A stretch of DNA of 64,000 nucleotides, from assembly GCA_963794325.1 (NCBI GenBank), contig CAWCDG010000004.1, forward strand, positions 672,001 to 736,000, written 5' to 3'. Origin of the DNA: an uncultured delta proteobacterium (GTDB lineage: Bacteria; Desulfobacterota; Binatia; Binatales; Binataceae). The position numbers were made by a program, and so were the translations under genes. Shown here piece after piece: positions 16,538-34,404 of this stretch (positions are counted from its first letter, which is position 1; the number at the start of each line of letters is the position of its first letter). The notes beneath the pieces were generated by a model. The model was not told the origin of the DNA. It ran no database searches and worked only from the letters and a program-made list of their open reading frames with translations.

Positions 16538-17566
16538 CTAACTGGCGCGATACAAACGAGCCGCTTTCGCATGGCGCTGGGCGATTTCCTTTCGCAACGC
16601 TGCGGGCTTGAGCACTTCGATCCACGGGCCCATGCTCATTATCCAGTTCGCCAACTCCGTCGTGCCCTTGACGGTCATAGTCAGGATCGTCGAGCCGTCG
16701 CGGCGACGCGCAAAACGCTGGCTGCGATGAATCGTGCGCGAGCGTACGTACGCCTCGGTTTGTGCGCTGTGGATTTTCAACTCGACTCTCGTCTCAGGAC
16801 CGTCGACGATTCCGAAAGTCCCTTCAGTGTGCGCTTCAGGATTGAATCTCGGCGGATAGGCGAACCGCACGGGAGCGCCGTCCGTCTGCCGAATGAAATC
16901 GACCGAGCGCATTCGCTCTATCGCCAGATAGATAGTTGCGTTGCTTCGATCGCTGTGGCCGAGCAGGTAGAGGCCGCCACGGTAGGCGATTAGCGAGTAG
17001 GGATCGAAATCGTGATGATGCCCCTCGCCCGTCAGACCCGCGTAGTCAACCTTGAGCCGGCTCTGATCGAGCAGCGCGCGCAAGATCACGTCGAGCTGTT
17101 CGCTGAAATCGGTGTAGTCCTTGGGCGCATAAGGTACGGCGTAAAACTTGCGCTCGAGAGCGGACAGGCGAGTCTGCTGCGTCATGTTCAGATTCTGAAA
17201 CACCTTCTCCCACAGCCCCTCGACTCCCTCCTTCAACACCGTGCCTTCGAGGAACTTGAGAACGGTCAGCGAGAAATACAGCAGCGCGACCTGGTACGAG
17301 GAGGCCTCCGCGGCTTTCATCGAACTGACCAGACGGAGTTTTCGATCGCCGCCGGAGGCGACAACTTCGACGAGCGCGCCACCATGCGAGTCGGTCAAAT
17401 CGGTGCGCAGCACGGAGACATAACGGGCGAGAGTGCGCTCGGAGATTTCCAGAGTCTCGGCGATCGATTTGAAACTCCAGCCGTATGGTTTCGAGAATAA
17501 CCCGGCGACGATTCGCGCCAGCCGAATCGCGGCGCCGTAGGTCGGCTTGCGGCGAAGTTTCTTCAT
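16538..17566 (-). CDS. HTH-WYL-WCX transcriptional regulator
   Basis: wHTH IAETLEISERTLARY; WYL core DPYSLIAYRGGLYLLG...LAIERM; WCX WIMSMGPWIEVLKPAALR. Confidence 0.9.
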   Translation of the reverse strand: MKKLRRKPTYGAAIRLARIVAGLFSKPYGWSFKSIAETLEISERTLARYVSVLRTDLTDSHGGALVEVVASGGDRKLRLVSSMKAAEASSYQVALLYFSLTVLKFLEGTVLKEGVEGLWEKVFQNLNMTQQTRLSALERKFYAVPYAPKDYTDFSEQLDVILRALLDQSRLKVDYAGLTGEGHHHDFDPYSLIAYRGGLYLLGHSDRSNATIYLAIERMRSVDFIRQTDGAPVRFAYPPRFNPEAHTEGTFGIVDGPETRVELKIHSAQTEAYVRSRTIHRSQRFARRRDGSTILTMTVKGTTELANWIMSMGPWIEVLKPAALRKEIAQRHAKAARLYRAS

Positions 17567-17593
17567 GTTCACATCCAATCATCTCGTTTGCCA

Positions 17594-17627
17594 GATGACA
17601 ACCGTTGTCATCACGCCGATGTAGGTT
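17594..17627 (+). promoter_or_regulatory. Candidate WYL operator plus -10 element of the recC promoter
   Basis: Perfect palindrome GATGACAAC-C-GTTGTCATC (17594..17612); TGTCAT-N10-TAGGTT. Confidence 0.65.
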
Positions 17628-17663
17628 TCTAAAAGCCGATACGCGATCCATAGTTGTGCCGCG

Positions 17664-20600
17664 ATGATTCGTCTTCAGTACTCAAATCGACTCGAAAATC
17701 TGATCGCGCCGCTGGCCGAGGCGGTCGCGGCGCATCAGAGACGCGACCCGCTGGAGCGAGTGTCGATCGTCGTGCCCAACCGCGTGGTCGAACAATTCGT
17801 TCGCTACCGGCTGGCTGAATCGATCGGCATCGCGGCCAATCTGAGATTCCCGTTCCTGCGCAGCTACCTGGGCGAGCTTCTCCAATCGACTGACAAGAAC
17901 CTTGAGATACTGGAGGCCGACGAGCTGCAACTTGTCCTCTTCGAGTGCCTGCGCAGCACGAACTATCGCGACGATCACGGATTGAAACCCGCGCGCGACT
18001 ACATCCTCGGGGGATCCAAGACTGACGCCGACGTCGAGCTTAGAACGCTCCTGCTGGCCGCGCAGTTGGCGCGACTGTTTCGCGAATACTCGATTTCGCG
18101 GCGGCGCATGATCGTTAAGTGGCGCGCTGCACGGCGATCAGACATTGATGCGATGGGCGAGACCGAGCGATGGCAGCGGCATTTGTGGCAACTGGTCTTC
18201 GATTCGCACGGCCGGGTGCGCGAGGAGTGGCTGCACCATCGCGACACTCGGCTGATGATGCTGCCCGACGCATTCGAGGCGACCGAGGACCAGCAACTCA
18301 AGGCCGTGGTGCCCGACACTCTTCACGTGTTCAGTTCGTCGTATGCGGGAAATGCTTACGCCGATATCTTTGCGAGACTCGGAGCGTTCGGCGACGTTCG
18401 GATCTACGCGCTCAATCCGTGCCGCGAGTTTTGGGAAGACGTCGACACCTCGCGTCGTGGCGCTCTTGCCGGATGGGTTCATCAGCATGACAAGCTCGGC
18501 GAGAAAATCAGCGAATCCGAAGACCCGTTCTCACTCAATGAGTCATCCGACTCGCCAGCTCTGCGGCTCTGGGGGCGGCCGGGCCGTGAATACATCCGGT
18601 TGCTGAATGAAGTGTCGCAGTGCGATTTCGCGCCACTCTTTTCCGATCCGGTATCCGGCGAAACTGCGTCGGTGCTGGAAAAGCTTCAGCAGAACATCCT
18701 CGATCGCGCGCCGCAGCCTGCGAATATCGAAGATCGCAAAGGCGGACCATCGGAACCGCGAATCAGTTTTCTCGCCTGCCCGGGGATTCGGCGCGAAGCC
18801 GAGATCGTCGCGAACGAAATCTGGTCGCTCATTCGCAGCAACGAAACCCTTGCCGTCGAGGGCAAAGCCGAGCGTCTTCGCTTTCACGAAATCGCCGTGC
18901 TGATTCCCGATTCGTCGGTTGACGACTACGTGGCGCAAATCGACAGCGTCTTTCGAAAGCAGCACCAGATTCCGATCGATCTCGTCAGTCGAAGCGCCGC
19001 GGGCGCGAGTCGCGTCGCCGAAGCCGTCGACCTGCTTCTCCAAATTCCGAGCGGCCGCTTCTCGCGCACGGAAATGATCCGGCTGCTGACCCATCCCGCG
19101 TTGAACGACGAAAGTGGAAGTGGAGTCGACATCGAGAAGTGGCGGCGTTGGAGCGAGACGCTCGGGATTTTCTTCGGCGCCGACGACTACGATCTGAAAG
19201 ATACCTACATTCCGCGCGGCCTCTACCACTGGGATCAAGCGATCAAACGCCTCGCGCTCGGCACCATGATGACAGGTCAGCGTGGCGGAAATCCCGCATT
19301 TTATGCGGCCGAAGCCACGGGACTCAGCTACCTTCCGGGAAAAGTCGCGCAGGATGAACTCGAGACGGCTGCGCGATTCATCCGCCTGGCGCGATCTCTG
19401 ATCGCCGACGCGATCTCAATCCGCGATGCGCGATTGACGCCTCGTGAATGGTCGCTGATGCTTGGCGAGTTCGTCAACGCGTACATTCGGCCTGACGGCG
19501 CGGTTGATGAGCAGGTCAGGGACCGGTTCCTCGAGGCGATCGAGTCGATCGGAGAATCGAACCTGAGCATCGGCGCGATGTCGTACGAGTCGGCGCGCGA
19601 AGTGATCGCGGCGCGAGTGATCGATCTCGATTCGCGTCGCGGACAATATTCGGGGCGTGGCGTTGCGATCGGATCGTTCAGCTCGCTGCGATCGATCCCA
19701 TTCAAAGTGATTTTTGCGCTGGGGTTGAATGAGGCCGTTTTTCCGGAACGCGAGCATAGAGAGCCGCTTGATTTGCGGACGCTCAAGCGCACGGCAGGCG
19801 ACGTTTCTCCCGCGGAGCGCGACCGTTACCTGTTCCTTGAGACGATCCTCGCCGCGCGCGAGCGGATTTTTTTCTCCTACGTTGCCCGCAACGCGAAGAC
19901 CGGCGACGAGCTGGAACCTTCGCCAGTCATTCGCGAGCTGCAGTCAATTCTGCGCGGATTCATCGATGAGAAGACGCTCGCGAAGCTAACATTGAAGCAT
20001 CCGATCAGCCGCTACGACTTGAAGTATTTTCCGGAATTCAGCGAAGCAGGATTATCAGACTGTCAGCCTGAAATCGCGAGCTTCGATCCCGACGCGCGGC
20101 GCGGTGCCCGGATGCTCGCCTTTCGAAAGAAGATCGAGGAGGTCGCGCCGCATTCGACGAGGCGCGAGGGCGAGAGACTGATCGATAGTTTTGGCCCTGA
20201 GCTGCTCGAACGCGTCAAAGAGGATCTCCAGTTTCCGAAATTCGAATCGCAGGCTGCCGCGACGAACGCGGGGCGCGTGGAAGAGATCGCGCTGCCAATC
20301 GCCGCGATTCGAAGATATCTCGAATGTCCTCTGCAGGGGGCGGCGCGCTATTCGCTCGGGATGCTCGAGGACGAAGATGCGCCGGAGGACGCGCAGGACG
20401 AGCCGATCGAGCAGTCGCGCCTCAATCGTGTGGTCATGCTGCGCAACGTTTTCTGGGGTGCCGCCGGCCAGCTCGACGCGATCGAGGAAGCGTATGCGCG
20501 CGAGGTCCGGATCGCACAGGCTCGCGGCCACGCGTCGGCCGGCCAGTTCGCGGAGGCCGCAAAAGCTGGCGACGATTCAGCTCTTCGACAATGGACCTCG

Positions 20601-21275
20601 CAGGCTTTGAAAGCGGGCGTGAACGATTTCGAAGGATGGAAAGACATTCGGATCGGGCGCGCCGATGAATTTGCCGACGCCGCCGAAATTCTCGATCCGA
20701 TCACCCTGAACGCGGAAGTGCGCCGTCACGACGGCACGAATGTGACGCATCGCGTGAGCCTCTACGGCACGATTCGCGGCGTTTCGCCTGATGCGGGCGC
20801 CGCGATCAATTGCGTGCTGCGCAAATCGGTAAAGTCGAAGGACTTTCTTCCGGCATTCATCAATGCGATTGCGCTCGCTGCCGCCGGAGTGCAAATGCCG
20901 AAAACATTCCGCGCGATCGTACTCCGCTCGAATCCCGAACAAAAAGCGGACTGGATTCGCGCGTTCGAAACCATGGATCGCGAATCTGCGCTCGGCTACC
21001 TCACCGAAGTCGTCAGCGATCTACTGTCAACCGGCAATGACTATTTCCTACCCTTCGAAGCCGTCGAGGAAGTCGTAGAGGTATTGGACAACGAAAAAAA
21101 AGTTCACGACCTGGTCGATACGGTCGAGCAGGTTCTGCTGGTTGACGCCGTGAAGTGCAGCTCCGATTACGGCCCGGTGCGTAATCCCAGAGACTTCGAC
21201 CCACCCGATGAACAAACGATCGCGCAGATCGTCGCGCGCCGCTTCGATCCGATTCGCGGGATCTTCGAGAAATGA
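17664..21275 (+). CDS. recC: Exodeoxyribonuclease V gamma subunit
   Basis: YSNRLENL, IVVPN, LNPCREFWED, LWGRPGRE, IPFKVIFALGLNE, DRYLFLETILAARE; 1203 aa. Confidence 0.92.
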   Translation: MIRLQYSNRLENLIAPLAEAVAAHQRRDPLERVSIVVPNRVVEQFVRYRLAESIGIAANLRFPFLRSYLGELLQSTDKNLEILEADELQLVLFECLRSTNYRDDHGLKPARDYILGGSKTDADVELRTLLLAAQLARLFREYSISRRRMIVKWRAARRSDIDAMGETERWQRHLWQLVFDSHGRVREEWLHHRDTRLMMLPDAFEATEDQQLKAVVPDTLHVFSSSYAGNAYADIFARLGAFGDVRIYALNPCREFWEDVDTSRRGALAGWVHQHDKLGEKISESEDPFSLNESSDSPALRLWGRPGREYIRLLNEVSQCDFAPLFSDPVSGETASVLEKLQQNILDRAPQPANIEDRKGGPSEPRISFLACPGIRREAEIVANEIWSLIRSNETLAVEGKAERLRFHEIAVLIPDSSVDDYVAQIDSVFRKQHQIPIDLVSRSAAGASRVAEAVDLLLQIPSGRFSRTEMIRLLTHPALNDESGSGVDIEKWRRWSETLGIFFGADDYDLKDTYIPRGLYHWDQAIKRLALGTMMTGQRGGNPAFYAAEATGLSYLPGKVAQDELETAARFIRLARSLIADAISIRDARLTPREWSLMLGEFVNAYIRPDGAVDEQVRDRFLEAIESIGESNLSIGAMSYESAREVIAARVIDLDSRRGQYSGRGVAIGSFSSLRSIPFKVIFALGLNEAVFPEREHREPLDLRTLKRTAGDVSPAERDRYLFLETILAARERIFFSYVARNAKTGDELEPSPVIRELQSILRGFIDEKTLAKLTLKHPISRYDLKYFPEFSEAGLSDCQPEIASFDPDARRGARMLAFRKKIEEVAPHSTRREGERLIDSFGPELLERVKEDLQFPKFESQAAATNAGRVEEIALPIAAIRRYLECPLQGAARYSLGMLEDEDAPEDAQDEPIEQSRLNRVVMLRNVFWGAAGQLDAIEEAYAREVRIAQARGHASAGQFAEAAKAGDDSALRQWTSQALKAGVNDFEGWKDIRIGRADEFADAAEILDPITLNAEVRRHDGTNVTHRVSLYGTIRGVSPDAGAAINCVLRKSVKSKDFLPAFINAIALAAAGVQMPKTFRAIVLRSNPEQKADWIRAFETMDRESALGYLTEVVSDLLSTGNDYFLPFEAVEEVVEVLDNEKKVHDLVDTVEQVLLVDAVKCSSDYGPVRNPRDFDPPDEQTIAQIVARRFDPIRGIFEK

Positions 21276-24200
21276 GCGCACAGGAATCGAACTTCGAGTA
21301 TTACCGCCCGTCGATTCTCGACGAGATTCTCGAGGGCGGACATAAGGTAATCGACGCCAGCGCGGGCACCGGCAAGACCTTCACCATCGAGCGCATCGTG
21401 GTGGAACTACTGCTTACCGGCGCCGCGAAAATCGATCAGATCCTCGTCGTTACGTTCACCGAAAAGGCCACGGCTGAGCTGCGCGCGCGAATCCGGGCGG
21501 CGATCGAACACGTCATGTCCGGCAGGAGCGCCGGGGACGCGCGCGCGTCGGGGCGCCGGAGCCTCGGCGACGAGGAGCGCGAGAGACTCAAGTCCGCGTT
21601 GTTCTCATTTCATCATTCGCCGATTCATACGATTCATAGTTTCTGCCATAGGATGCTGACGGAGCTCGCTTTCGACAGCGGCGTCCGTTTCGGGCTTGAC
21701 CTGGCGAGTGGACGTCGCGAGTTCCACGAAAGTCTGCGAGCGGAATTGCGCGAACGGTTGAAGTCGGACGCTCGCGTCGCGCGCCTTGTGCGCGAATGGC
21801 TTTCCGACGAGAAGCGCGATTCGGATGGACTCGAGGATCTGCTGTGGCGGGCTCACTCCCAGCGCTACCTGCGAACGACCGAGCACGAACGAAATCTGAA
21901 GGCGTTAGATGATCTCGTGATTGCGTTCGATGCAGTCGCGTTGGTGAATGCCTTTCGCATCGCGGCCATTAAAGATGATGCGCGCGACGATGCGATCAGT
22001 GCGACGGGGGAACTCGAGACGATCGTAAACCGTGCCGGACGATCGACCGCTGGTCTGGTCGATGGTCTGATCGATTTCGATTTTGATCGCATCTGCAGGC
22101 CAACGAAAACGTCGAGGCGGACCGGCAAATTCCCTGACGACATGCCGGACAAGGTGCGCGCGATCATCGATGCGGCAAAGCGGGTTCAAGCAGCAATTGC
22201 GATCGAGCAGAGGGCGGTGGACGAATTGCTGCCAGACGTCGTCAATCGGATGGACGCGCGGAAACGCGAGCAGGGGACGCTCGACTACGAGGACATGCTG
22301 GCGTGGCTGGCGGACGCGCTCGACGGTGCGCGCGGCAAGTCGCTCGCGGCCACGCTGCGCGAACGCTACCGCGTGACTTTGATCGACGAATTCCAGGACA
22401 CCGACGAACTGCAGTGGAAAATTTTTCGCCGCGTGTTCGTCGAAGGCGGCGGCGGCAACGTCGTCTTCGTAATCGGAGATCCCAAGCAGGCGATTTACGG
22501 ATTCCGCGGCGCCGACGTGCACGCATATCTTGAAGCGCGTTTGCAGCTTTCCGGATTCGGGTGCGGCGACGGTCAACTTGCGCCAAAATTTCCGATCGAC
22601 CGCCGACATGATCGAAGCATGCAACCTGATCTTCGAGCAGAACGCCGGCGAGCCGTTGTTCACCGGCGAAATAAAGTACGATCCTCCTGCGGAATGCGGG
22701 CGTCCTGCTCTCAGAGCCATCGCGGCGAATGGGAATGGCATTCAGATCGCGCCGGTGGCACTAATCAAGTTCGAGCCGCGTGATGAAAGACATAAATTTT
22801 CGCGCCGGATGCGTGAAGCGGTCGGGCTCGGAATCGCAAACGCGATTCGACGAATTATCAAGGAACCGGACCACGCAATCGAAATCAGCGACGAGGGGCA
22901 GGCGCCGCGCAAAGTCACGGCGCGTGATGTTTACGTCCTTACGCGGACCAATCGCGACAGCGTCGAAATCGCAAAATACCTGGGTCAGGTCGGAGTGCCG
23001 TTTGCCTTCCACAAGCAGGACGGGTTGTTTCAGACTCGCGAAGCCGCTTACGTTCTCGACGTGCTCAGGGGGATCGAGGAGCCTGGCCGGCGCTCGAACC
23101 GTCTGAAGGCGTGGGCTTCGCCGTTCTTCGCCGTCGAGTATGCCGACCTCGCGCGGCTTGAAGACGATCACACGGCGCAGCCGATGGTTGACCGATTGTT
23201 CGAATGGCGCGCGCTCGCCGAGGCCGGGCATTTTGCCGATTTGTTCGATGCGCTGCTGCATCAGAGCGGATTGGCAGAACGCCAATTACTGTTGTCGGAG
23301 CGCGGCCGCCAGCTGACTAACTTCGAACACATTTTCGAGATTCTGACTCTCGATGCGTCGCGTCGCGGAGTCTCGCTCGCGGAAATAATCGAGAAGCTCG
23401 ACGACTACATTGCGGAGCGTGCGACGCCTTCGGGCGACGATCCGAATATTCAGCGTATCGAAAATGATCGGGACGCCGTGCAAATCATGACGATTCACAA
23501 GAGCAAGGGCCTCGAAGCTGACGTCGTCGCGCTGTTCGGCGGATTTTTTGCGAACAACATGCCTGAGCCGGTGCGCGTTTTTCATTCGGGAAACGAGCGC
23601 CGACTCGCAATCGGCAAGCCAGCGCAGTCTTTGGCGGACGGGCAGATCAGAACAGAACGCGCGGAGGAGGATCAACGCTTGCTCTACGTCGCGCTGACCC
23701 GCGCGCGCGCTAAATTGATACTGCCCTGCGTCCCCAGCGGCGCACTGAATCGTAATCGTGACCTGAGTGGATTCTACAAACCGTTGAACGAACGACTGCG
23801 CACTCTAGAGCAAAAAAGTCGATTCGAGCGACGCTATTCGTAACTGAGATCGCAAATTCGCCGTTTACGGATTCGGAAAATGAAGAAGGGCCGATCGTAC
23901 CAGCGCCTGACGAGAATGCGTTGCACGACTGGCTCGAATCGACGTCGCGGCCCATCGTGCGCGAAGCAGAATTCACTGATCTGGGCGCAAAGCATCGAGG
24001 CTTGATCGTCGAATCTTACACCTCGCTGCAGGCGGCCGAGCCCGACGATTTCAAAAGCAGCGTCGATGCGATCGATGCGCGCGGCAACAACCTCGATTTG
24101 CCGGGCGGGCGTCGCGTCGGAATTTTCCTGCATGAGGCCATCGAGAAGCTTGATTTCGACTCCTTTGGCGACGCACCCGATCTGCAATCGTGGATGGCGC

Positions 24201-24811
24201 GCGACGACGTGCGCGAGCTGTTCGCGAAGGCGATGCGCCGTCATGGTGTGGTTGATCTACGATGGCTCGACCGGGGCCGCGAAATCGTCTTCAACACTCT
24301 CACCTCGAGAGTCGCACTCGCGGAAACCATGCTCGACGGCGGACTCTACCGGCTCGCCGGAGTCCGCGAGATGGAGTTCGCGTATCCGATTCCCGAAAGA
24401 CATCACACGTTGCTGGGCAACGGTCCGGATGGCTCGTGGAGGGTTGAGCGCGGCTATATCAAGGGGTTTATCGACTTCGTATTCCGACGCAGCAAACTGA
24501 TGTATTTCGCCGATTGGAAGGGCGACCTCTTACCATCATATGAGCCAGCCGCGGTCGCGAGGCACGTCCAAAGCCACTACAGATTACAGGCTCGAATATA
24601 CTCAGTCGGTGTCGTCCGCCTGCTCGCTATTCACAACGAGCGCGACTACGACTCGAAGTTTGGCGGCCTTCTCTATGTATTTCTTCGAGGCATTTCGCGA
24701 ACTGGAGACGGCAAGACTGGATTCTACTTCGAGCGGCCGTCGTGGAATGAAATAGTCAGTTATGAATCTGTACTGATGAATCATGATACTGAGTCCGAGC
24801 TACTGACATGA
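21272..24811 (+). CDS. recB: Exodeoxyribonuclease V beta subunit, with two frameshifts (near 22550 and 23820)
   Basis: ASAGTGKT, DEFQDTD, GDPKQAIYGFRGAD, NFRS, TIHKSKGLE, RLLYVALTRA, nuclease GFID...DWK and Y.LQ..IY spread over three ORFs. Confidence 0.88.
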
Positions 24812-26856
24812 ACGACAGATACTCACTACTCGGAATGAATACTGCCTGGCGACGCTTTGAATCAGCTCGTGGCGGCGGTCGTTCCTCTTTCGACGCTCGC
24901 ATTCGTGCGCTCGAGGGCGCGGTCGCCGCGCTCAATCTTGTACCTGAGACTGTCCACCTGGCGGCTGAGCTAGCGGCCCTTGAACCGGCTCTGGAAGCCG
25001 ACGATCGAATCTCGCTTATCGTACTTATCCTCGTTTCTTTGGCCGCGCTCCAGGAAGGGAGCACCCGTTTCCCGGTGACTGGGCCACTCTCCGAGGCTCC
25101 AATGCGGCGCGTTCTGAGCGCCTTGTGTGCGGAAGGTTTCGCCGACGCCGGCATCGACAAGATAGTCAGTTCGATCACAGTGCTTCTCGAATCGAACCGT
25201 GCACCGTCCGTCGTCGGTCGAAATGAAGGTGAATACAAGCCGCTACTACATATTGCGCCGTACATAGTGCATCAGAGTATCTATAACTGCGAGCGCGAAC
25301 TGGCTATTAGACTGGCCGCGTTACTCAATGCTCGTCCAGAAGAGCAACCGAACGCAGAGCAACTCGTCCGCGCGGTTCAAGATGTGATTGCTCGTCCCGT
25401 GATTGTGCAGGGCAAGCGAATCATGATGTCCGATGAACAGTGCAGCGTAGTTAGCGCTTCAGCGCGCGCCGGACTGACCGTTATTTCGGGAGGTCCGGGC
25501 ACTGGCAAGACATCGATCATCGTCGCAATCATGCGGCTGATGGTGCGCCTTGGCGTCGATCCTTCGAAGATCGCGCTGGCGGCCCCAACCGGGAAAGCGG
25601 CGTATCGGATGGGCGAGTGCGTGAGTGAGTCGCTGAATCGAATCGAGGAGCGCGACGATGTGGACCGGGCGCTCCTCGATGCGCATCTCGAGCCGTCGAC
25701 GATTCACCGCTTGCTCGGTTACTCGCCCGATTCTGGCCGCTTCCGGCATCATCGAAACAACCCGCTCCCGGCGAAGTTGGTTATCGTCGATGAAGGGTCG
25801 ATGCTCGACGTCACCTTGATGGAAAGGCTGACGAACGCGATTGCGCCGGGAGCGCGCTTGATACTGCTCGGCGACGCGAATCAATTGCCGTCGGTTGCCG
25901 CGGGCTCCGTGTTCCGCGACCTGGTTCCATCGGCCGGAAATGGCATCGGTCTCCTCGCTGAGGCCTCGATGCGGCTCGTGGTGAATCACCGGATGAACAG
26001 CGACGATGCGGGTCGATCGATCCTGCTCGCGGCGCAATCGATTAACGACGGCGATTCCAATCTGCTGAGCTTGGTTGACGAAGCGAATGCTCCGATTGTT
26101 GTGCGGCGATCATCGACGGAAGAGATGGCATTCGCCGGTGTTGAATTTCTTGCGGCGGATCCGTGCACGCTCGGTCCGTTTCTGGATCGCTGGTATGCGG
26201 ATCGAGTGCTAGGCGGAAAGAAAATTGCGGAACTGATTAAGCATGAATACATCGAGCGCGACGGGCATTTCGATGAGGCCGACTGCGAGCGTTTGCGCGT
26301 CCTGTTCGCGCACGTCGCCAAATCGCGCATCCTGTGCGTGACGCGTGTGTTCGAAACCGGCGCCGATCGGATAAACGCACGGCTTCATTCAAGAGCCGCC
26401 GAAACTGCGGGCGTCAATGCGGAGCGCGTTCCGTTCGTCGTTGGCGAGCCGTTGATCGTGCTCCGCAATGATTACGAGCGCGGACTCTTCAACGGCGACA
26501 ATGGAATCATGCTGTGGATCCGGCGCGGCAACGGCGCGCAGGTCCGAATGGCGGTATTCCCGCGAGGCGACAAGTTCGTCGCGTTTCGGTTCGCGGCGCT
26601 GCGCGAATTCATCGAGCTCAGCTACGCGATGACAGTGCACAAGGCGCAGGGCTCCGAGTTCGATTCGATCGCGATCGTTCTGCCGGAGAAACCGGTGGCA
26701 ATGTTGACCCGCGAACTGATCTATACGGCAGTCAGCCGAAGCAGGACGTCGGTCGTGATCGTCGGCGACGAGTCGGTGCTCAGCAATGCCATCGACACTC
26801 GCGTGGAACGGTTCTCCGGGCTCGCGGATCGGCTGAAACTCGAGCTCGCCAGCTAA
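24808..26856 (+). CDS. recD: Exodeoxyribonuclease V alpha subunit
   Basis: ISGGPGTGKT, TIHRLLG, VDEGSM, GDANQLPSV, YAMTVHKAQGSEF. Confidence 0.93.
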   Translation: MNDRYSLLGMNTAWRRFESARGGGRSSFDARIRALEGAVAALNLVPETVHLAAELAALEPALEADDRISLIVLILVSLAALQEGSTRFPVTGPLSEAPMRRVLSALCAEGFADAGIDKIVSSITVLLESNRAPSVVGRNEGEYKPLLHIAPYIVHQSIYNCERELAIRLAALLNARPEEQPNAEQLVRAVQDVIARPVIVQGKRIMMSDEQCSVVSASARAGLTVISGGPGTGKTSIIVAIMRLMVRLGVDPSKIALAAPTGKAAYRMGECVSESLNRIEERDDVDRALLDAHLEPSTIHRLLGYSPDSGRFRHHRNNPLPAKLVIVDEGSMLDVTLMERLTNAIAPGARLILLGDANQLPSVAAGSVFRDLVPSAGNGIGLLAEASMRLVVNHRMNSDDAGRSILLAAQSINDGDSNLLSLVDEANAPIVVRRSSTEEMAFAGVEFLAADPCTLGPFLDRWYADRVLGGKKIAELIKHEYIERDGHFDEADCERLRVLFAHVAKSRILCVTRVFETGADRINARLHSRAAETAGVNAERVPFVVGEPLIVLRNDYERGLFNGDNGIMLWIRRGNGAQVRMAVFPRGDKFVAFRFAALREFIELSYAMTVHKAQGSEFDSIAIVLPEKPVAMLTRELIYTAVSRSRTSVVIVGDESVLSNAIDTRVERFSGLADRLKLELAS

Positions 26857-29922: not shown

Positions 29923-30168
29923 CGGCTGAATCGAGATGCCAAACGAGCCGGATTTCAAACTGAGACACTACCCATCTCCCCGGTTCTCCGCGATTGTGGC
30001 ACCGTCGTTTGTGATCTACCAATATGTTGCAGCGCGGACCAGTGAACGAGCCGGGGAGGTACTTCGCGGGGATACCAGGGACTAGACCGTAAACAGGGGT
30101 TTATCGCGCGGGATGGAATCAAAGACGGTCCTCGTATAACGTAACCTCACTCTACAGGGGGCGCATCC

Positions 30169-30534
30169 ATGTCCATTGTGAAATCACTGTTACTGGCTGG
30201 AATTGTGCTGGCGAGTCTCGCGAGTCAAGTCTGTGCACAGACCACCATCTATGAGGGGCCCGGCACATACTCCACCTACGGCAACCAAACATATGGACCG
30301 GGCGGAACTCAATCCACCTACGGAAATCAGACCTATACTCCGGATGGGACGTACTCGACCTACGGAAACCAAACGTATGGCTCCGACGGGAGTAGTTATT
30401 CGACGTATGGAAACACAACATACGGCAGCGACGGTACAACTTCCCAGACCTACGGGAACCAGACCTATATCACCGGCCCGAATGGCCAGAGCCAAACTTG
30501 CTCGACGTACGGCAATCAAACCTACTGCAACTAG
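30169..30534 (+). CDS. Secreted protein with six TYGN(Q/T)TY repeats
   Basis: Signal peptide; tandem repeats; two C-terminal Cys. Confidence 0.8.
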   Translation: MSIVKSLLLAGIVLASLASQVCAQTTIYEGPGTYSTYGNQTYGPGGTQSTYGNQTYTPDGTYSTYGNQTYGSDGSSYSTYGNTTYGSDGTTSQTYGNQTYITGPNGQSQTCSTYGNQTYCN

Positions 30535-30678
30535 GCGATGACATTCTCGATACGCGCCCGCTCTTGGCTAAAGCGCGGGCAGCAGAAACAACCGGCTCCA
30601 TAAAAATCCGACCTGTCACGTCGCTGACACTCGCCACGTCTGATGATATGACAGACCGGAAATTTAGATAGTCGGAAT

Positions 30679-31187
30679 TTATTCGGAGGCTTTTGGTTCG
30701 CTCGCAACGACCGCAGGTTCAGCGCCAACCACTTTGACCGGCTTTGCGGTCGTGATTGTCAGTACCGGAAGGACATAGGGCGGAAATCCCATACGAGATG
30801 TCAAAGAGAAAAACATCTCTCTGGCGAATGGCCACGAATGATACGCGCCATTCGCTTGTGCGAAGTGCGCAATATCGGCGTCAGATATCGGCTCTTGCCC
30901 GCCGACCGCATAAACCATTCGGTAGACGAGCGAAATTTCGGCGACGGGGGCCCTTCACTCGATACCTTCAGATCATGATGGCAGGCCAATTCGATCACGT
31001 TCGGCTCTACATGAACGGGTTCGTACTGATCGCTGAATTCGGGTTGCAAACTGCTCGAACCGGTCACTTTGCCAGGTTCGCGTTTGGCGCGCACTTCTTC
31101 AAGCCACACATCGGAAAGATTCACTCGTCTCGCTATGCGCAAGACAGCCGCCATGTCAGGCACAATACGTTCAGTGCGTTCAGCCAT
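30679..31187 (-). CDS. SecB-like chaperone of a TAC system, frameshift in the G/C run near 30950
   Basis: Joined frames give ...VAEISLVYRMVYAV...FAQANGAYHSWPFAREMFFSLTSRMGFPPYVLP (SecB-type P.RE...T...G.PP..LP). Confidence 0.8.
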
Positions 31188-31195
31188 TAGTTCCT

Positions 31196-31570
31196 TCAAG
31201 CTGCCAGATCATAAGCACCCGCCCCTTCGGCGGGTGCTTGATTTTCAGACATGCATACTTCGAGCTGCGCAGGCGCTTCAGAGAGCCAGCCCCATTGGAG
31301 AGGCCTGAGATCGAAGGCAACTTCAAAGCCGCAAACAGCCAACGCCTTAGCGAGCGTTCTGATGGTCAAATTGTGGCTACCACTAAGCATCCTGGTCACG
31401 AAAGAACGCGAGGAGCCCATCCTACGGGCCAATTCAGCATTGCTAAACTCACGTTCTTTCATCGCATTGCATATGGTTGATTGGGCGATCGCCAACGCAG
31501 TCTCCGCAACCACATCGGTATCAATAGGGCGTTCATTCCTCGATTCCCAAGATAGATTTTTCATCGTCAT
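31196..31570 (-). CDS. XRE-HTH (HigA-like) antitoxin with C-terminal extension
   Basis: SNAELARRMGSSRSFVTRMLSGSHNLTIRTL; ATGA overlap with the toxin; ends YDLAA. Confidence 0.8.
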   Translation of the reverse strand: MTMKNLSWESRNERPIDTDVVAETALAIAQSTICNAMKEREFSNAELARRMGSSRSFVTRMLSGSHNLTIRTLAKALAVCGFEVAFDLRPLQWGWLSEAPAQLEVCMSENQAPAEGAGAYDLAA

Positions 31571-31965
31571 GCTCCTGCTCCTAAGATTTCGTCCGTGTAC
31601 TCTCCGAAGAGAGCTAAAGCCGTGCCAATCTCCCGTTCTTCCTTTCCGGTCTTTCCCGGTTTGTCTTTGACCCAACCGTTGAACAGAACGATATCGACGC
31701 GGGTCCCTTGCTGTTTGCGGTAGCAATAGATTCGGTGGTCGTGTTCCTTGAATTCCCACAGTGGTTTGGTTTTGAGCGGCTTGAAGCGCTGCGGATTGCA
31801 AAAAGCGGCGCCCTGTTTAGTCACTGCCGCGAATGGACCTTCAAATTTATCGCGCATGGACTTTTGGCATCCATCCATGAACAGCGCGGCAGGACATCGG
31901 CCATTGCTCCGTTCAAACATGGAGACGCTTCCAAGCGGACCTATCACGCGAGGGCGTAGAGGCAA
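31567..31965 (-). CDS. RelE/HigB (Gp49-like) toxin
   Basis: RFKPL...LWEFK...HRIYCY...IVLFNGWVK...EI..A pattern; toxin-first gene order. Confidence 0.75.
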   Translation of the reverse strand: MPLRPRVIGPLGSVSMFERSNGRCPAALFMDGCQKSMRDKFEGPFAAVTKQGAAFCNPQRFKPLKTKPLWEFKEHDHRIYCYRKQQGTRVDIVLFNGWVKDKPGKTGKEEREIGTALALFGEYTDEILGAGA

Positions 31966-32020
31966 GTTAACCTTCCCATCCTCACCACCACAGCTTTGTT
32001 ATTCTCTTCGCCCATCGGGT

Positions 32021-32052
32021 TGTTACCATATAAGATAACACTTCGCTGTCAA
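32021..32052 (-). promoter_or_regulatory. Sigma70-type promoter of the TAC operon with an overlapping palindrome
   Basis: Minus-strand TTGACA-N16-TATGGT; imperfect palindrome TGTTACC-N6-GATAACA over the -10. Confidence 0.5.
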
Positions 32053-32132
32053 GAGGCAAGAGGACTATTTCTTTCATATATCTCCTTCGTTCCGGACGAT
32101 CGTCGTTAAGGCGATCAAACGGCGATAAACCC

Positions 32133-32160
32133 TTGCTTGCTTGAGCAAGTCTGGTAATAT
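32133..32160 (+). promoter_or_regulatory. Candidate promoter of the Panacea operon
   Basis: TTGCTT-N16-TAATAT with extended TG. Confidence 0.35.
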
Positions 32161-32232
32161 CGTCACAGATGCGATAGACGATGCACGCGGTATTGGGAGG
32201 TAATCAGCATCCACAACCGGGGGGTTGGAACC

Positions 32233-32829
32233 GTGGAGATTGTTCGATCAGATCAGGTGACGTATGAATTTCCGGAGATGCATCCGGACGAACGGTTGCG
32301 CGAACTGATCCTATACATTGCCGAGAAATGCGCCAGCGATCCTGAGTTCAGCGCGACTCTTCTCAACAAGATCCTTTTCTACGCAGATTTTCTTTCTTTC
32401 GCACAGAGAGGAAAGCCTGTTACTGGGGCGGCATATCAGGCGCTCGACTACGGCCCCGCGCCTAAACGCTTAGTTCCAGTTCGCGATATGATGATCGATG
32501 CTGGCGAATTAGAAATCAAAGAAATCCCGAAGTTCACCTATTCTCGTCAACAATACGTAGCACTCCGGCGCGCAGACCTCGACAGGCTGTTTCGACCGAC
32601 CGACATTGCGTTAGTCGATGAAGTCATCGAGCGTCTTAAGGGAGTAAGCGCTCAGCGGATTAGTGAATTTTCACATCATCGTCTATGGAAGATCGCTAGA
32701 GGCGCGGGCGGAAATTACAGAGGCCTAATACCCTATGAGGCTATGTACATATCTGATGCTCCGCCAAACGAAGCTGATACAAAGCGCGCAAAGGAACTGT
32801 CTGCTAAACTCGGTTGGGCGGTTGACTGA
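32233..32829 (+). CDS. Panacea (DUF4065/SocA-like) domain antitoxin
   Basis: LNKILFYADF, GKPVTGAAYQALDYGP, ISEFSH..W. Confidence 0.85.
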   Translation: MEIVRSDQVTYEFPEMHPDERLRELILYIAEKCASDPEFSATLLNKILFYADFLSFAQRGKPVTGAAYQALDYGPAPKRLVPVRDMMIDAGELEIKEIPKFTYSRQQYVALRRADLDRLFRPTDIALVDEVIERLKGVSAQRISEFSHHRLWKIARGAGGNYRGLIPYEAMYISDAPPNEADTKRAKELSAKLGWAVD

Positions 32830-32834
32830 GTGAA

Positions 32835-33128
32835 GTGCGCACACTTGAAGCAGACGACGCTTACACGGAACAGCTTTCTAAGCTTGGTAATTTACCCTTT
32901 GTTGAAGAAGTCCTCAGAGGAATAACCAACGGAATAGCAAGCTGCGCTGAAGCATTCGACCTAGTTCCCGGCTACACGCAATTGAGAATTGCAAAGACCG
33001 ATGACTTTGATACGGTGGCCGGGAGTTTGCCGCCACTACGAATGTACTTTCGGATTCTAGATAACAATCGAGTTCGATTGATGTGGATCGAAAGGATTGA
33101 TGACGATCCGGGATTGCTAGACGAATGA
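32835..33128 (+). CDS. Small putative RelE-fold toxin
   Basis: 97 aa, 5 nt after the Panacea gene; LRIAKT...LRMYFRI...VRLMWIE. Confidence 0.5.
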   Translation: MRTLEADDAYTEQLSKLGNLPFVEEVLRGITNGIASCAEAFDLVPGYTQLRIAKTDDFDTVAGSLPPLRMYFRILDNNRVRLMWIERIDDDPGLLDE

Positions 33129-33240
33129 AGAAAATAGACCGTCCGCCCGCCGTTCAATCGCCTTTCGGGACTCGCCCGCGTTGTCCCCACGTCAGTTATA
33201 AGTGCCCTAATTAGGACACTACCGCCGGGGAGGAACTACT

Positions 33241-34404
33241 ATGCTTCGGAGCGAGAATCGGATTCTTACTACGCATGCCGGGAGCTTGCCGCGGCGGGAG
33301 AGTTTGACGGCGATGCTGGTGAAAAGCAGTCGCGGAGAGGACGTAGATCGCGCCGCGATGCTCCGCGAGATCGAGGAATCGACTCGCTACGTCGTACAGA
33401 AGCAACTCGAAGCGGGAATCGACGTCGGCAACAACGGCGAGCAATCGCGCGAGAGCTTCTTCACTTACGTGCAGCATCGAATGACCGGCTTTGGCGGACG
33501 CAGCGAGCGGCCAATCATGCGCGACCTGGTCCGCTACCCGAGCTTCCTCAAGATGATGGCGCCGTTGTTTCAGCGATCGATGGTGGATTTGCTTCACGCG
33601 CCGAAGGCGATTGGCGAGGTCCAGTACCGCGACCGGGCCGGCGTCGATCTCGAATGCGCCGATACTTTGCGCATCCTCGACGACCAGCCCGACAAGTTCG
33701 CCGAGCCGTTCATGACTGCGCCGTCGCCGGGGATAATAGCCTCGGCAATGCTCAATGAGTATTACGAGAATTACGAGAAGTATGTAATCGCAGTAGCTAA
33801 AGCATTGCATACTGAGTATGAGTACATAGTATCGAAGGGATTCGTCCTGCAGGTCGATTGTCCCGACCTGGCGATGGAGCGGCACACGTCGTACGCGGAC
33901 CGCCCGCTCACTGATTTTCTGGAGTATGTCGAACTGAATATCGCCGCGATGAATCGAGCGCTGCACGGCATCGCGCCCGATCGGGTCCGCATGCACGTAT
34001 GCTGGGGAAATTACGAGGCGCCGCACGATCTCGACGTGCCGCTCGCGCAGATTCTGCCGATCCTCTATCACGCCAACGTCGGTGCGCTGGTCCTCGAGGC
34101 GGCCAATCCCCGCCACCAGCACGAGTATCGCTGCTTCAAGGAATTCCCGCTGCCGGATCATATGAGCCTCGTCACGGGCGTCATCGATACCAAGACTAAC
34201 TACGTCGAGCATCACGAGGTCGTCGCCGATCGGCTCGAGCGCGCGGCCAATGCGATTGGCGATCCGCGCCGCGTTATGGCCGGGACGGATTGCGGCTTCG
34301 AGACTTCTGCCGGGCTGGGCGAGGTCGCCGAGGAAATAGTGTGGGCGAAGCTGCGCGCGATGCGGGCCGGCGCCGATTTGGCGTCGCACCGGCTATTTCA
34401 CTGA
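33241..34404 (+). CDS. Cobalamin-independent methionine synthase II family protein
   Basis: ILTTHAGSLPR, LQVDCP, HVCWGNY, GTDCGF. Confidence 0.9.
   Translation: MLRSENRILTTHAGSLPRRESLTAMLVKSSRGEDVDRAAMLREIEESTRYVVQKQLEAGIDVGNNGEQSRESFFTYVQHRMTGFGGRSERPIMRDLVRYPSFLKMMAPLFQRSMVDLLHAPKAIGEVQYRDRAGVDLECADTLRILDDQPDKFAEPFMTAPSPGIIASAMLNEYYENYEKYVIAVAKALHTEYEYIVSKGFVLQVDCPDLAMERHTSYADRPLTDFLEYVELNIAAMNRALHGIAPDRVRMHVCWGNYEAPHDLDVPLAQILPILYHANVGALVLEAANPRHQHEYRCFKEFPLPDHMSLVTGVIDTKTNYVEHHEVVADRLERAANAIGDPRRVMAGTDCGFETSAGLGEVAEEIVWAKLRAMRAGADLASHRLFH

Follow-up and report, generated by a model that had tools for sequence, protein, structure and literature searches.

Does a WYL-domain protein govern the RecBCD enzyme whose genes it faces, and if so, by what means and together with which other genes? 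The question arises from a locus in the 64,000-nucleotide stretch of DNA analysed here (the window; G000:C4:672001-736000), which stems from a member of Candidatus Binatus (Binataceae, Binatia). There, a gene for a regulator with winged helix-turn-helix (wHTH), WYL and WCX domains stands head-to-head with overlapping recC, recB and recD genes across an intergenic gap of 97 bp (17567-17663). From the letters alone, the original prediction had proposed that the WYL protein senses single-stranded DNA (ssDNA) and induces recCBD as a dedicated repair or defence module that lacked a described precedent. Our findings suggest that the WYL protein is probably a homodimeric activator of the DriD/DdaA type, which serves a small LexA-independent damage regulon in Ca. 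Binatus with recCBD as the best-scoring target. The core of the original prediction, control of recCBD by an ssDNA-sensing WYL protein, is thereby supported through a shared, conserved operator and promoter region and through the DriD-type make-up of the regulator; the attributes "dedicated", "defence" and "without precedent" are not.

The evidence that carries this view lies in the gap itself. It harbors a perfect 15-bp palindrome, TGACAACCGTTGTCA, a candidate operator of which this is the sole exact copy in the 4.45-Mb genome. Among 20 paired loci of the genus the palindrome is exact in 16 and carries one mismatch in four; the surrounding gap diverges in sequence and ranges in length from 97 to 321 bp. 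On the recC side, a -10-like hexamer follows the GTTGTC half-site at a distance of 12 nt, and a TAnnnT element (TAGGTT or TATGTT) is found at this very distance in the recC loci of 16 of the 19 relatives. A matching -35 element was not detected, as the hexamers 16-18 nt upstream of TAGGTT agree with TTGACA at no more than two of six positions, and a consensus scan returned no sigma-70-type promoter within the gap. On the opposite side, a conserved block (ATCCAATCATC on the plus strand) presents GATGAT on the minus strand, and its distance to the palindrome is constant in 17 aligned genus loci despite the insertion of about 22 nt before the WYL start. The block might represent the -10 element of the WYL gene's own promoter, and since it keeps its 13-nt distance from the other half-site, one palindrome may serve both divergent promoters. 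The WYL gene and recCBD are thus predicted to share a conserved operator and promoter region, and it is for this reason that recCBD is very probably under control of the WYL protein. Past the presumed -10, the stretch up to the start of recC (17628-17663) contains a further block that is conserved genus-wide as CGCGATCCATAGTTGTGCCGCG. It displays no obvious Shine-Dalgarno sequence, and may function as a leader or as an additional, basal promoter.

How widespread is the pairing? We compared 41 genomes, 25 from the genus (including G000, the genome of the window) and 16 belonging to other families of its class. Of these, 31 contained a match to the WYL protein; 30 loci were returned, of which 20, all in the genus, contained a divergent RecC N-terminus inside the 1.5-kb flank. 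The divergent pair is hence found in 20 of 25 genus genomes (19 of 23 leaving out the unpublished G019 and G024), a recurrence which shows that the adjacency is beyond chance. Neither the WYL gene nor recC was found in G001 and G023, both of which are fragmented assemblies. A similar picture emerged from 66 named public loci, 56 of which match the WYL protein over its full length and extend 1 kb or more upstream. At a WYL identity of 70% or higher, every one of 32 loci showed divergent recC, the two genes lying 97-324 bp apart. Among the 24 loci below 70% identity, three have divergent recC (one of them 998 bp off, with a LuxR-type gene intervening), one shows it downstream in tandem orientation and the remaining 20 are without recC. 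The WYL neighbors at unpaired loci are varied: a DUF5925-AAA ATPase (L081, L083, L084), RecQ and a PIN protein (L082), an SbcCD-like pair (L085), another AAA ATPase (L090), and otherwise unrelated genes. Judging from these low-identity loci, the linkage is a trait of Binataceae rather than of the regulator family, and is mostly lost in other Binatia. The synteny survey proposed with the original prediction therefore found the linkage in relatives. The accompanying question of whether AddAB coexists with RecBCD also received a positive answer: an AddAB- or AdnAB-like pair is encoded in G000 away from the window, comprising a 1123-amino-acid protein with a Cas4/PD-(D/E)XK-like C-terminus and a 1189-amino-acid protein with addA-type helicase matches, all scores being under the equivalog cut-offs. 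The pair has no WYL motif upstream according to the genome scan described below.

Is the regulator then a private switch of recCBD? We trained a position weight matrix (PWM) on the sites of relatives only and scanned it over G000, using the reversed genome as a null, which gave no match above 14 bits. The site in the gap was the best-scoring one in the genome, and it was followed by sites at rmuC, at an operon of a 70-amino-acid zinc-ribbon gene and a DUF5925-AAA ATPase gene, at a gene of no known family and at dnaB (see the table below). The GTTGTC-N12-TAnnnT layout is common to recC, rmuC and the AAA operon. At rmuC a site above 14 bits is present in 14 of 18 loci (14 of 16 leaving out G019 and G024), two of the four misses being fragments devoid of upstream DNA; at the zinc-ribbon/AAA operon it is kept in seven of eight (six of six leaving out G019). 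At dnaB, which was outside the training set, a GACAACCGTTGGC element matching a strict pattern occupies the equivalent position in 19 of 25 loci. In G038, a member of another family, recC and the WYL genes are on separate contigs, and recC still carries GACAACGGCTGTC-N12-TAGGTT upstream (20.1 bits). A self-contained repair or defence module that regulates nothing but its neighbor would account for the top score of the gap site and for a pairing conserved through the genus, but it leaves unexplained the same-spacing sites elsewhere, the orthologous regulators that adjoin other genes in other Binatia, and the G038 recC that bears the motif away from any regulator. It is further at odds with the flanks of the locus, which consist of housekeeping genes of the same G+C content, and with PADLOC, which recognized no defence system here and reported generic WYL models only. 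On these grounds we dropped the notion of a defence island and hold a module dedicated to recCBD to be very improbable.

Two members of the predicted regulon deserve attention in their own right. The zinc-ribbon protein has two CxxC pairs (KCDWCGL...LCPRCQV) and gave no Pfam, NCBIfam or PADLOC match; in L018 and L075 its gene separates recC from the operator, and in L087 it adjoins the WYL gene. A role as an effector of the damage response is conceivable, perhaps through modulation of division or of a nuclease. The DUF5925-AAA ATPase is a conserved motif-bearing target besides being the direct neighbor of the WYL gene at the three loci named above. Its look-alike clusters in the ESM Atlas are mostly from Actinomycetota and phages, and our literature search turned up no mention of DUF5925. 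The gene of no known family encodes a 281-amino-acid protein that was found in none of the 24 other genus genomes with this query and had no Pfam, NCBIfam or PADLOC match; given this absence, it is an accessory recruit to the predicted regulon. Its reading frame is overlapped by that of a 198-amino-acid, weakly PIN-like protein, and this strain-specific pair is possibly toxin-like or defence-like.

What is the relation of this circuit to the SOS response? LexA and RecA are both encoded elsewhere in G000, so that the predicted WYL circuit is a second circuit beside SOS. We rejected the idea that the palindrome is a LexA box, as exact-copy and PWM scans found no site near lexA or recA in G000, and as G010, a genome of 92% completeness, encodes LexA and contains no motif at its recC, rmuC or dnaB genes. 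G010 also lacks a WYL orthologue, even by family profile. This single genome provides a pointer that the motif tracks the WYL gene and not LexA.

To which kind of WYL regulator does the protein belong? Five solved sequences matched at E <0.01, all of them Caulobacter DriD with E about 2e-8. An AlphaFold2 model built from a 15-row alignment (mean predicted local distance difference test score 72.5) comprises a wHTH (residues 10-79), helices (90-140), a WYL barrel and a WCX domain, with a wHTH-to-WYL linker that is helical and about 50 residues long, as in DriD. Foldseek placed DriD first (E 2.7e-17), followed by PafBC (2.3e-13), CapW (4.7e-8) and BrxR (2.7e-7); TM-scores were low, as is expected for multi-domain chains, and the alignment with DriD was full-length at about 20% identity only. 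The features of DriD- and DdaA-type activators recur here: wHTH, linker, WYL and WCX follow each other in one chain of about 330 residues; the putative operator is a palindrome with a GAC-N7-GTC core in 20 of 20 paired loci; and the predicted promoters combine a fixed distance between operator and -10 with the lack of a consensus -35. As gauged by sequence and predicted fold, the regulator is of the DriD type, the characterized members of which sense ssDNA. A perfect palindrome and the WCX domain imply that it would act as a homodimer.

We envision a scenario whereby the dimer binds the GACAAC-N-GTTGTC palindrome, centred near -31, at promoters that possess a -10 (TAnnnT) but no -35. Upon binding of ssDNA from broken or stalled DNA by the WYL and WCX domains, the dimer would recruit RNA polymerase and switch on recCBD, rmuC, the zinc-ribbon/DUF5925-AAA operon, strain-specific accessory genes and perhaps dnaB as well as its own gene. 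Since RecBCD itself produces ssDNA, its induction would feed back positively on the regulator, a loop which we consider plausible by analogy with known systems. Operator binding, the ssDNA ligand, activation rather than repression and the feedback loop are all steps that we infer.

Several observations weigh against this scenario. The recC genes of G010, G020 and the unpublished G019 have no adjoining WYL gene, that of G010 directly facing the epimerase, and recC lacks the motif in three of the four other Binatia families examined. Since the loci of rmuC and of the AAA operon were among those used to train the PWM, the counts for these two targets are in part circular. The dnaB site exceeds 14 bits in just 8 of 25 loci, so that dnaB is perhaps a target and is best treated as a candidate, and the absence of sites at recA and lexA implies a regulon that is small. 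The -10 elements have been assigned by consensus reading. Eleven public runs contain the stretch, and none of them is listed as RNA.

A final pair of adverse points feeds distinct alternatives. The first is that the candidate operator overlaps the -35 region of the presumed promoters, a position that would suit a repressor equally well. Conceivably, a repressor of the CapW/BrxR kind could occupy the palindrome and block both divergent promoters until ssDNA releases it and thereby de-represses recCBD and the other targets. In favor of this, the fold search matched both CapW and BrxR significantly, and CapW does act on a bidirectional promoter in a manner relieved by ssDNA (PMC11662680). However, in the apparent absence of a -35 and of any sigma-70-type promoter in the gap, transcription would be weak without an activator, and the -10 spacing is fixed at three unrelated genes, as it is in DriD promoters. 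DriD and PafBC, moreover, are much closer matches than CapW or BrxR, and the 342-residue protein with its long helical linker resembles DriD (327 residues) rather than the 266-288-residue chains of CapW and BrxR. We therefore prefer an activator, mainly because the promoter architecture matches that of DriD promoters, and regard repression as unlikely.

The second point concerns the ligand. When the ssDNA contacts of DriD (PMC9186387) are mapped by HMMER alignment, two of seven are identical: Y168 and Y192 correspond to Y175 and Y200, neither of which varies across 15 Binatia orthologues. S172 is replaced by T, R178 by an invariant H, and K202, R204 and W206 by A, I and L. The same circuit might accordingly respond to something other than ssDNA, such as a nucleotide second messenger or RNA, and a WYL regulator that senses c-di-GMP has been reported (PMC11880434). 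Yet every characterized close relative (DriD, PafBC, CapW) is described as binding ssDNA, and the predicted targets are genes for DNA breaks and recombination. We give this option little credence and retain ssDNA as the presumed signal of a DriD-type activator.

The genes on which these arguments build are well supported. In keeping with the original prediction, Pfam identifies WCX (55.4 bits, cut-off 23.9) and WYL (40.3 bits, cut-off 21.8) in the regulator, with a weak HTH_11 match (21.4 bits) under the Pfam cut-off of 25; an in-frame TTG at 17578 would add four codons to the protein. The recC/recB and recB/recD junctions each overlap by 4 bp, as the predicted operon structure entailed. The three genes form one operon encoding RecC, RecB as a superfamily 1 (SF1) helicase with a PD-(D/E)XK nuclease, and RecD as an SF1B helicase, and the anticipated helicase and nuclease motifs are in place: AGTGKT, DEFQ and the nuclease signature GFIDFVF...DWKG in RecB, GGPGTGKT and DEGS in RecD. 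RecC scores 331.8 bits with the NCBIfam recC model, under its equivalog cut-off of 582.9.

Table. Coordinates of the features discussed (plain positions refer to the window, positions with a C prefix to contigs of G000)
Feature	Position	Strand	Remarks
wHTH-WYL-WCX regulator gene	16538..17566	-	342 amino acids; probable ATG at 17566; open reading frame 16538..17578
Conserved block, plus strand ATCCAATCATC	17573..17583	-	minus-strand GATGAT 13 nt from other half-site
Candidate operator, perfect 15-bp palindrome TGACAACCGTTGTCA	17596..17610	none	PWM 49.7 bits
-10-like hexamer TAGGTT	17622..17627	+	12 nt past GTTGTC half-site, toward recC
recC	17664..21275	+	1203 amino acids; PF04257 E 2.8e-54
recB	21272..24811	+	three frames in this assembly; Pfam UvrD-helicase, UvrD_C, PDDEXK_1 across three pieces
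recD	24808..26856	+	682 amino acids; NCBIfam recD 347.4 bits (cut-off 310.15); Pfam AAA_19, AAA_30, UvrD_C_2
XRE-type HTH gene	31196-31801	-	in low-G+C stretch
Panacea-domain SocA-like antitoxin gene	32233-32829	+	in low-G+C stretch
Predicted site, recC	window gap		49.7 bits; best-scoring in genome
Predicted site, rmuC	C3:278171		36.6 bits
Predicted site, 70-amino-acid CxxC...CxxC zinc-ribbon gene, then DUF5925-AAA ATPase gene	C5:131451		33.9 bits
Predicted site, 281-amino-acid gene of no known family and weak PIN-like gene	C4:1740072		28.5 bits
Predicted site, dnaB	C5:315157		21.5 bits
Zinc-ribbon gene	C5:131536-131748		70 amino acids
DUF5925-AAA ATPase gene	C5:131764-132903
Strain-specific 281-amino-acid/PIN-like pair	C4:1740196-1741600
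AddAB-like pair	about C4:1170167-1176994		1123 and 1189 amino acids
Other WYL-domain match	C7:93019-93216		in a 229-amino-acid open frame

Is recB intact? In the assembly it is distributed over three frames (21272-22783, 22530-23843 and 23921-24811), the third of which is a return to the first. This path results from one extra base near 22551-22555 plus two extra bases near 23825. The relatives G007, G018 and G013 have an uninterrupted recB of about 1180 codons or longer, and against G013 and G007 the recB of the window contains one extra base near 22553. We also compared 21200-24900 with Logan short-read contigs from four soil runs. In X1 record 3 (330 nt, one other letter), which possibly shares its sample with the window, a single base is missing at 22555; in X2 record 12 (1644 nt, 38 other letters) a single base is missing at 22551 and another two at 23825. 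The second break is outside the coverage of X1 and was judged solely from X2, a strain that is about 98% alike. Because the short-read contigs are free of the insertions, the breaks are most likely errors of long-read assembly, and in light of these contigs and of the intact relatives we rejected a recB pseudogene as unlikely. Similar single frameshifts occur in other long-read genomes of the genus, namely in the WYL gene of G016, recB of G003 and the epimerase gene of G009. Genes predicted from these assemblies should be treated with caution.

The genome of the window comprises 10 contigs and is 85% complete, and near-identical public loci come from soil metagenome-assembled genomes. The locus is flanked by genes for an epimerase, a PNPOx-like protein, a lyase, an alpha/beta hydrolase and an amidase. 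Apart from the regulator, the genome contains one other WYL-domain match, on another contig. Further along the window, a stretch of low G+C content (30000-34000; 0.53 versus about 0.60), which includes an XRE-type gene and a SocA-like antitoxin gene, is probably a small accessory island.

What might such a circuit accomplish? E. coli RecBCD is not known to be damage-inducible. A natural system in which the enzyme probably is inducible, through a sensor that responds to what it produces, would offer a convenient model for feedback in break repair. Tentatively, and with more doubt than conviction, we put forward a wider possibility: RecBCD of Binatota might be rendered damage-inducible by compact positive feedback, in which the ssDNA that it makes from breaks or linear phage DNA activates the neighboring WYL dimer, a single palindrome fires both recCBD and the WYL gene, and hitherto undescribed effectors are co-induced, namely the zinc-ribbon protein, encoded by the first gene of the recCBD operon in some species, and a DUF5925 AAA ATPase family common in phages. 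If true, this would amount to a self-amplifying, SOS-independent response to DNA breaks with new players. More generally, our analysis adds the uncultured phylum Binatota to the range of the DriD/DdaA/PafBC class of ssDNA-sensing damage regulators, with a clean regulon that is predicted from sequence alone. Its prime predicted target, and the genomic partner of the regulator, is the enzyme that resects double-strand breaks, and two uncharacterized proteins, the zinc-ribbon protein and the DUF5925-AAA ATPase, emerge from the regulon as candidate effectors of the damage response.

How does the circuit compare with known systems? The closest is that of DriD from Caulobacter crescentus, the top match by sequence and by fold. 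DriD is a homodimeric wHTH-WYL-WCX activator of an SOS-independent damage response with a similar length and domain order. Its sites, which are found at an identical distance to the -10 in all its promoters, include one at its own gene; these promoters lack most of the -35 consensus, and DriD activates them by recruitment of RNA polymerase (PMC13004042). Both regulons are small and, as far as described for DriD, include nucleases and a replication gene (dnaG in Caulobacter, possibly dnaB here), and both operators are GAC-N7-GTC palindromes. In contrast, AddAB, the end-resection enzyme of Caulobacter, is absent from the reported DriD targets (didA, bapE, recJ, recA, dnaG), whereas recCBD is both the best-scoring target and the neighbor of the Binatus regulator, and no Binatus site is located at recA. 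Most of the ssDNA contacts of DriD, too, are not conserved in the Binatus protein.

DdaA, a WYL activator of Moraxellaceae and Alcanivoracaceae, resembles the Binatus protein in its GACA-N5-TGTC core (PMC12392091). The Binatus operator, (T/C)GACAAC-N-GTTGTC(A/G), in fact contains the cores of both the DriD motif (CGAC-N7-GTCG) and the DdaA motif (CGWCA-N5-TGWCG) (PMC12392091). DdaA is self-regulated in the basal clade, and in Alcanivoracaceae and basal Moraxellaceae that bear LexA it has few predicted targets, which include recA, recC and sbcC (PMC12392091), a situation like that in Binatus. It belongs to a different phylum, and the likeness is drawn from its published motif and targets rather than from its sequence. 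A head-to-head pairing of ddaA and recC is not described in the parts of that paper covered here, which exclude supplementary figures S4 and S5.

PafBC of mycobacteria is likewise an ssDNA-activated WYL regulator of promoters without a -35, at which its motif is positioned just upstream of the -10. Induction of adnA, which belongs to the adnAB genes for an end-resection helicase-nuclease, is reported to be exclusively PafBC-dependent in mycobacteria (PMC8682763), a functional parallel to WYL control over recCBD. Unlike the Binatus regulator, PafBC is a heterodimer of two WYL proteins that is described as binding DNA only together with RNA polymerase, and it is a weaker fold match than DriD. 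The Binatus locus has a single WYL gene, as opposed to two adjacent or fused ones, and a perfect palindrome. CapW and BrxR belong to the same domain family and, as reported, are encoded divergently from their targets with a bidirectional promoter. CapW-controlled expression after zeocin is reduced in an E. coli recB mutant, which the authors credit to RecBCD products (PMC11662680). Nevertheless, both are repressors, shorter in length and weaker in their matches, and they neighbor the CBASS and BREX defence systems rather than a core repair operon; the Binatus gene sits beside no recognized system of this kind, but next to recCBD and the enzyme genes listed above.

By analogy with these systems, each half of the proposed loop has a published precedent. 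Our full-text search, covering mostly titles and abstracts and extending to PMC12392091 without its supplements, found no description of a head-to-head WYL-recCBD unit. PafBC control of adnAB (PMC8682763), DdaA regulation of recC and sbcC (PMC12392091) and the RecB-dependent activation of CapW (PMC11662680) nonetheless contradict the view that there was nothing comparable, and the gain is incremental because the concept is already established elsewhere. Given that its predicted control site also marks a few other repair genes, the Ca. Binatus regulator is best understood as a new member of an established regulator type rather than as a private switch of RecBCD.

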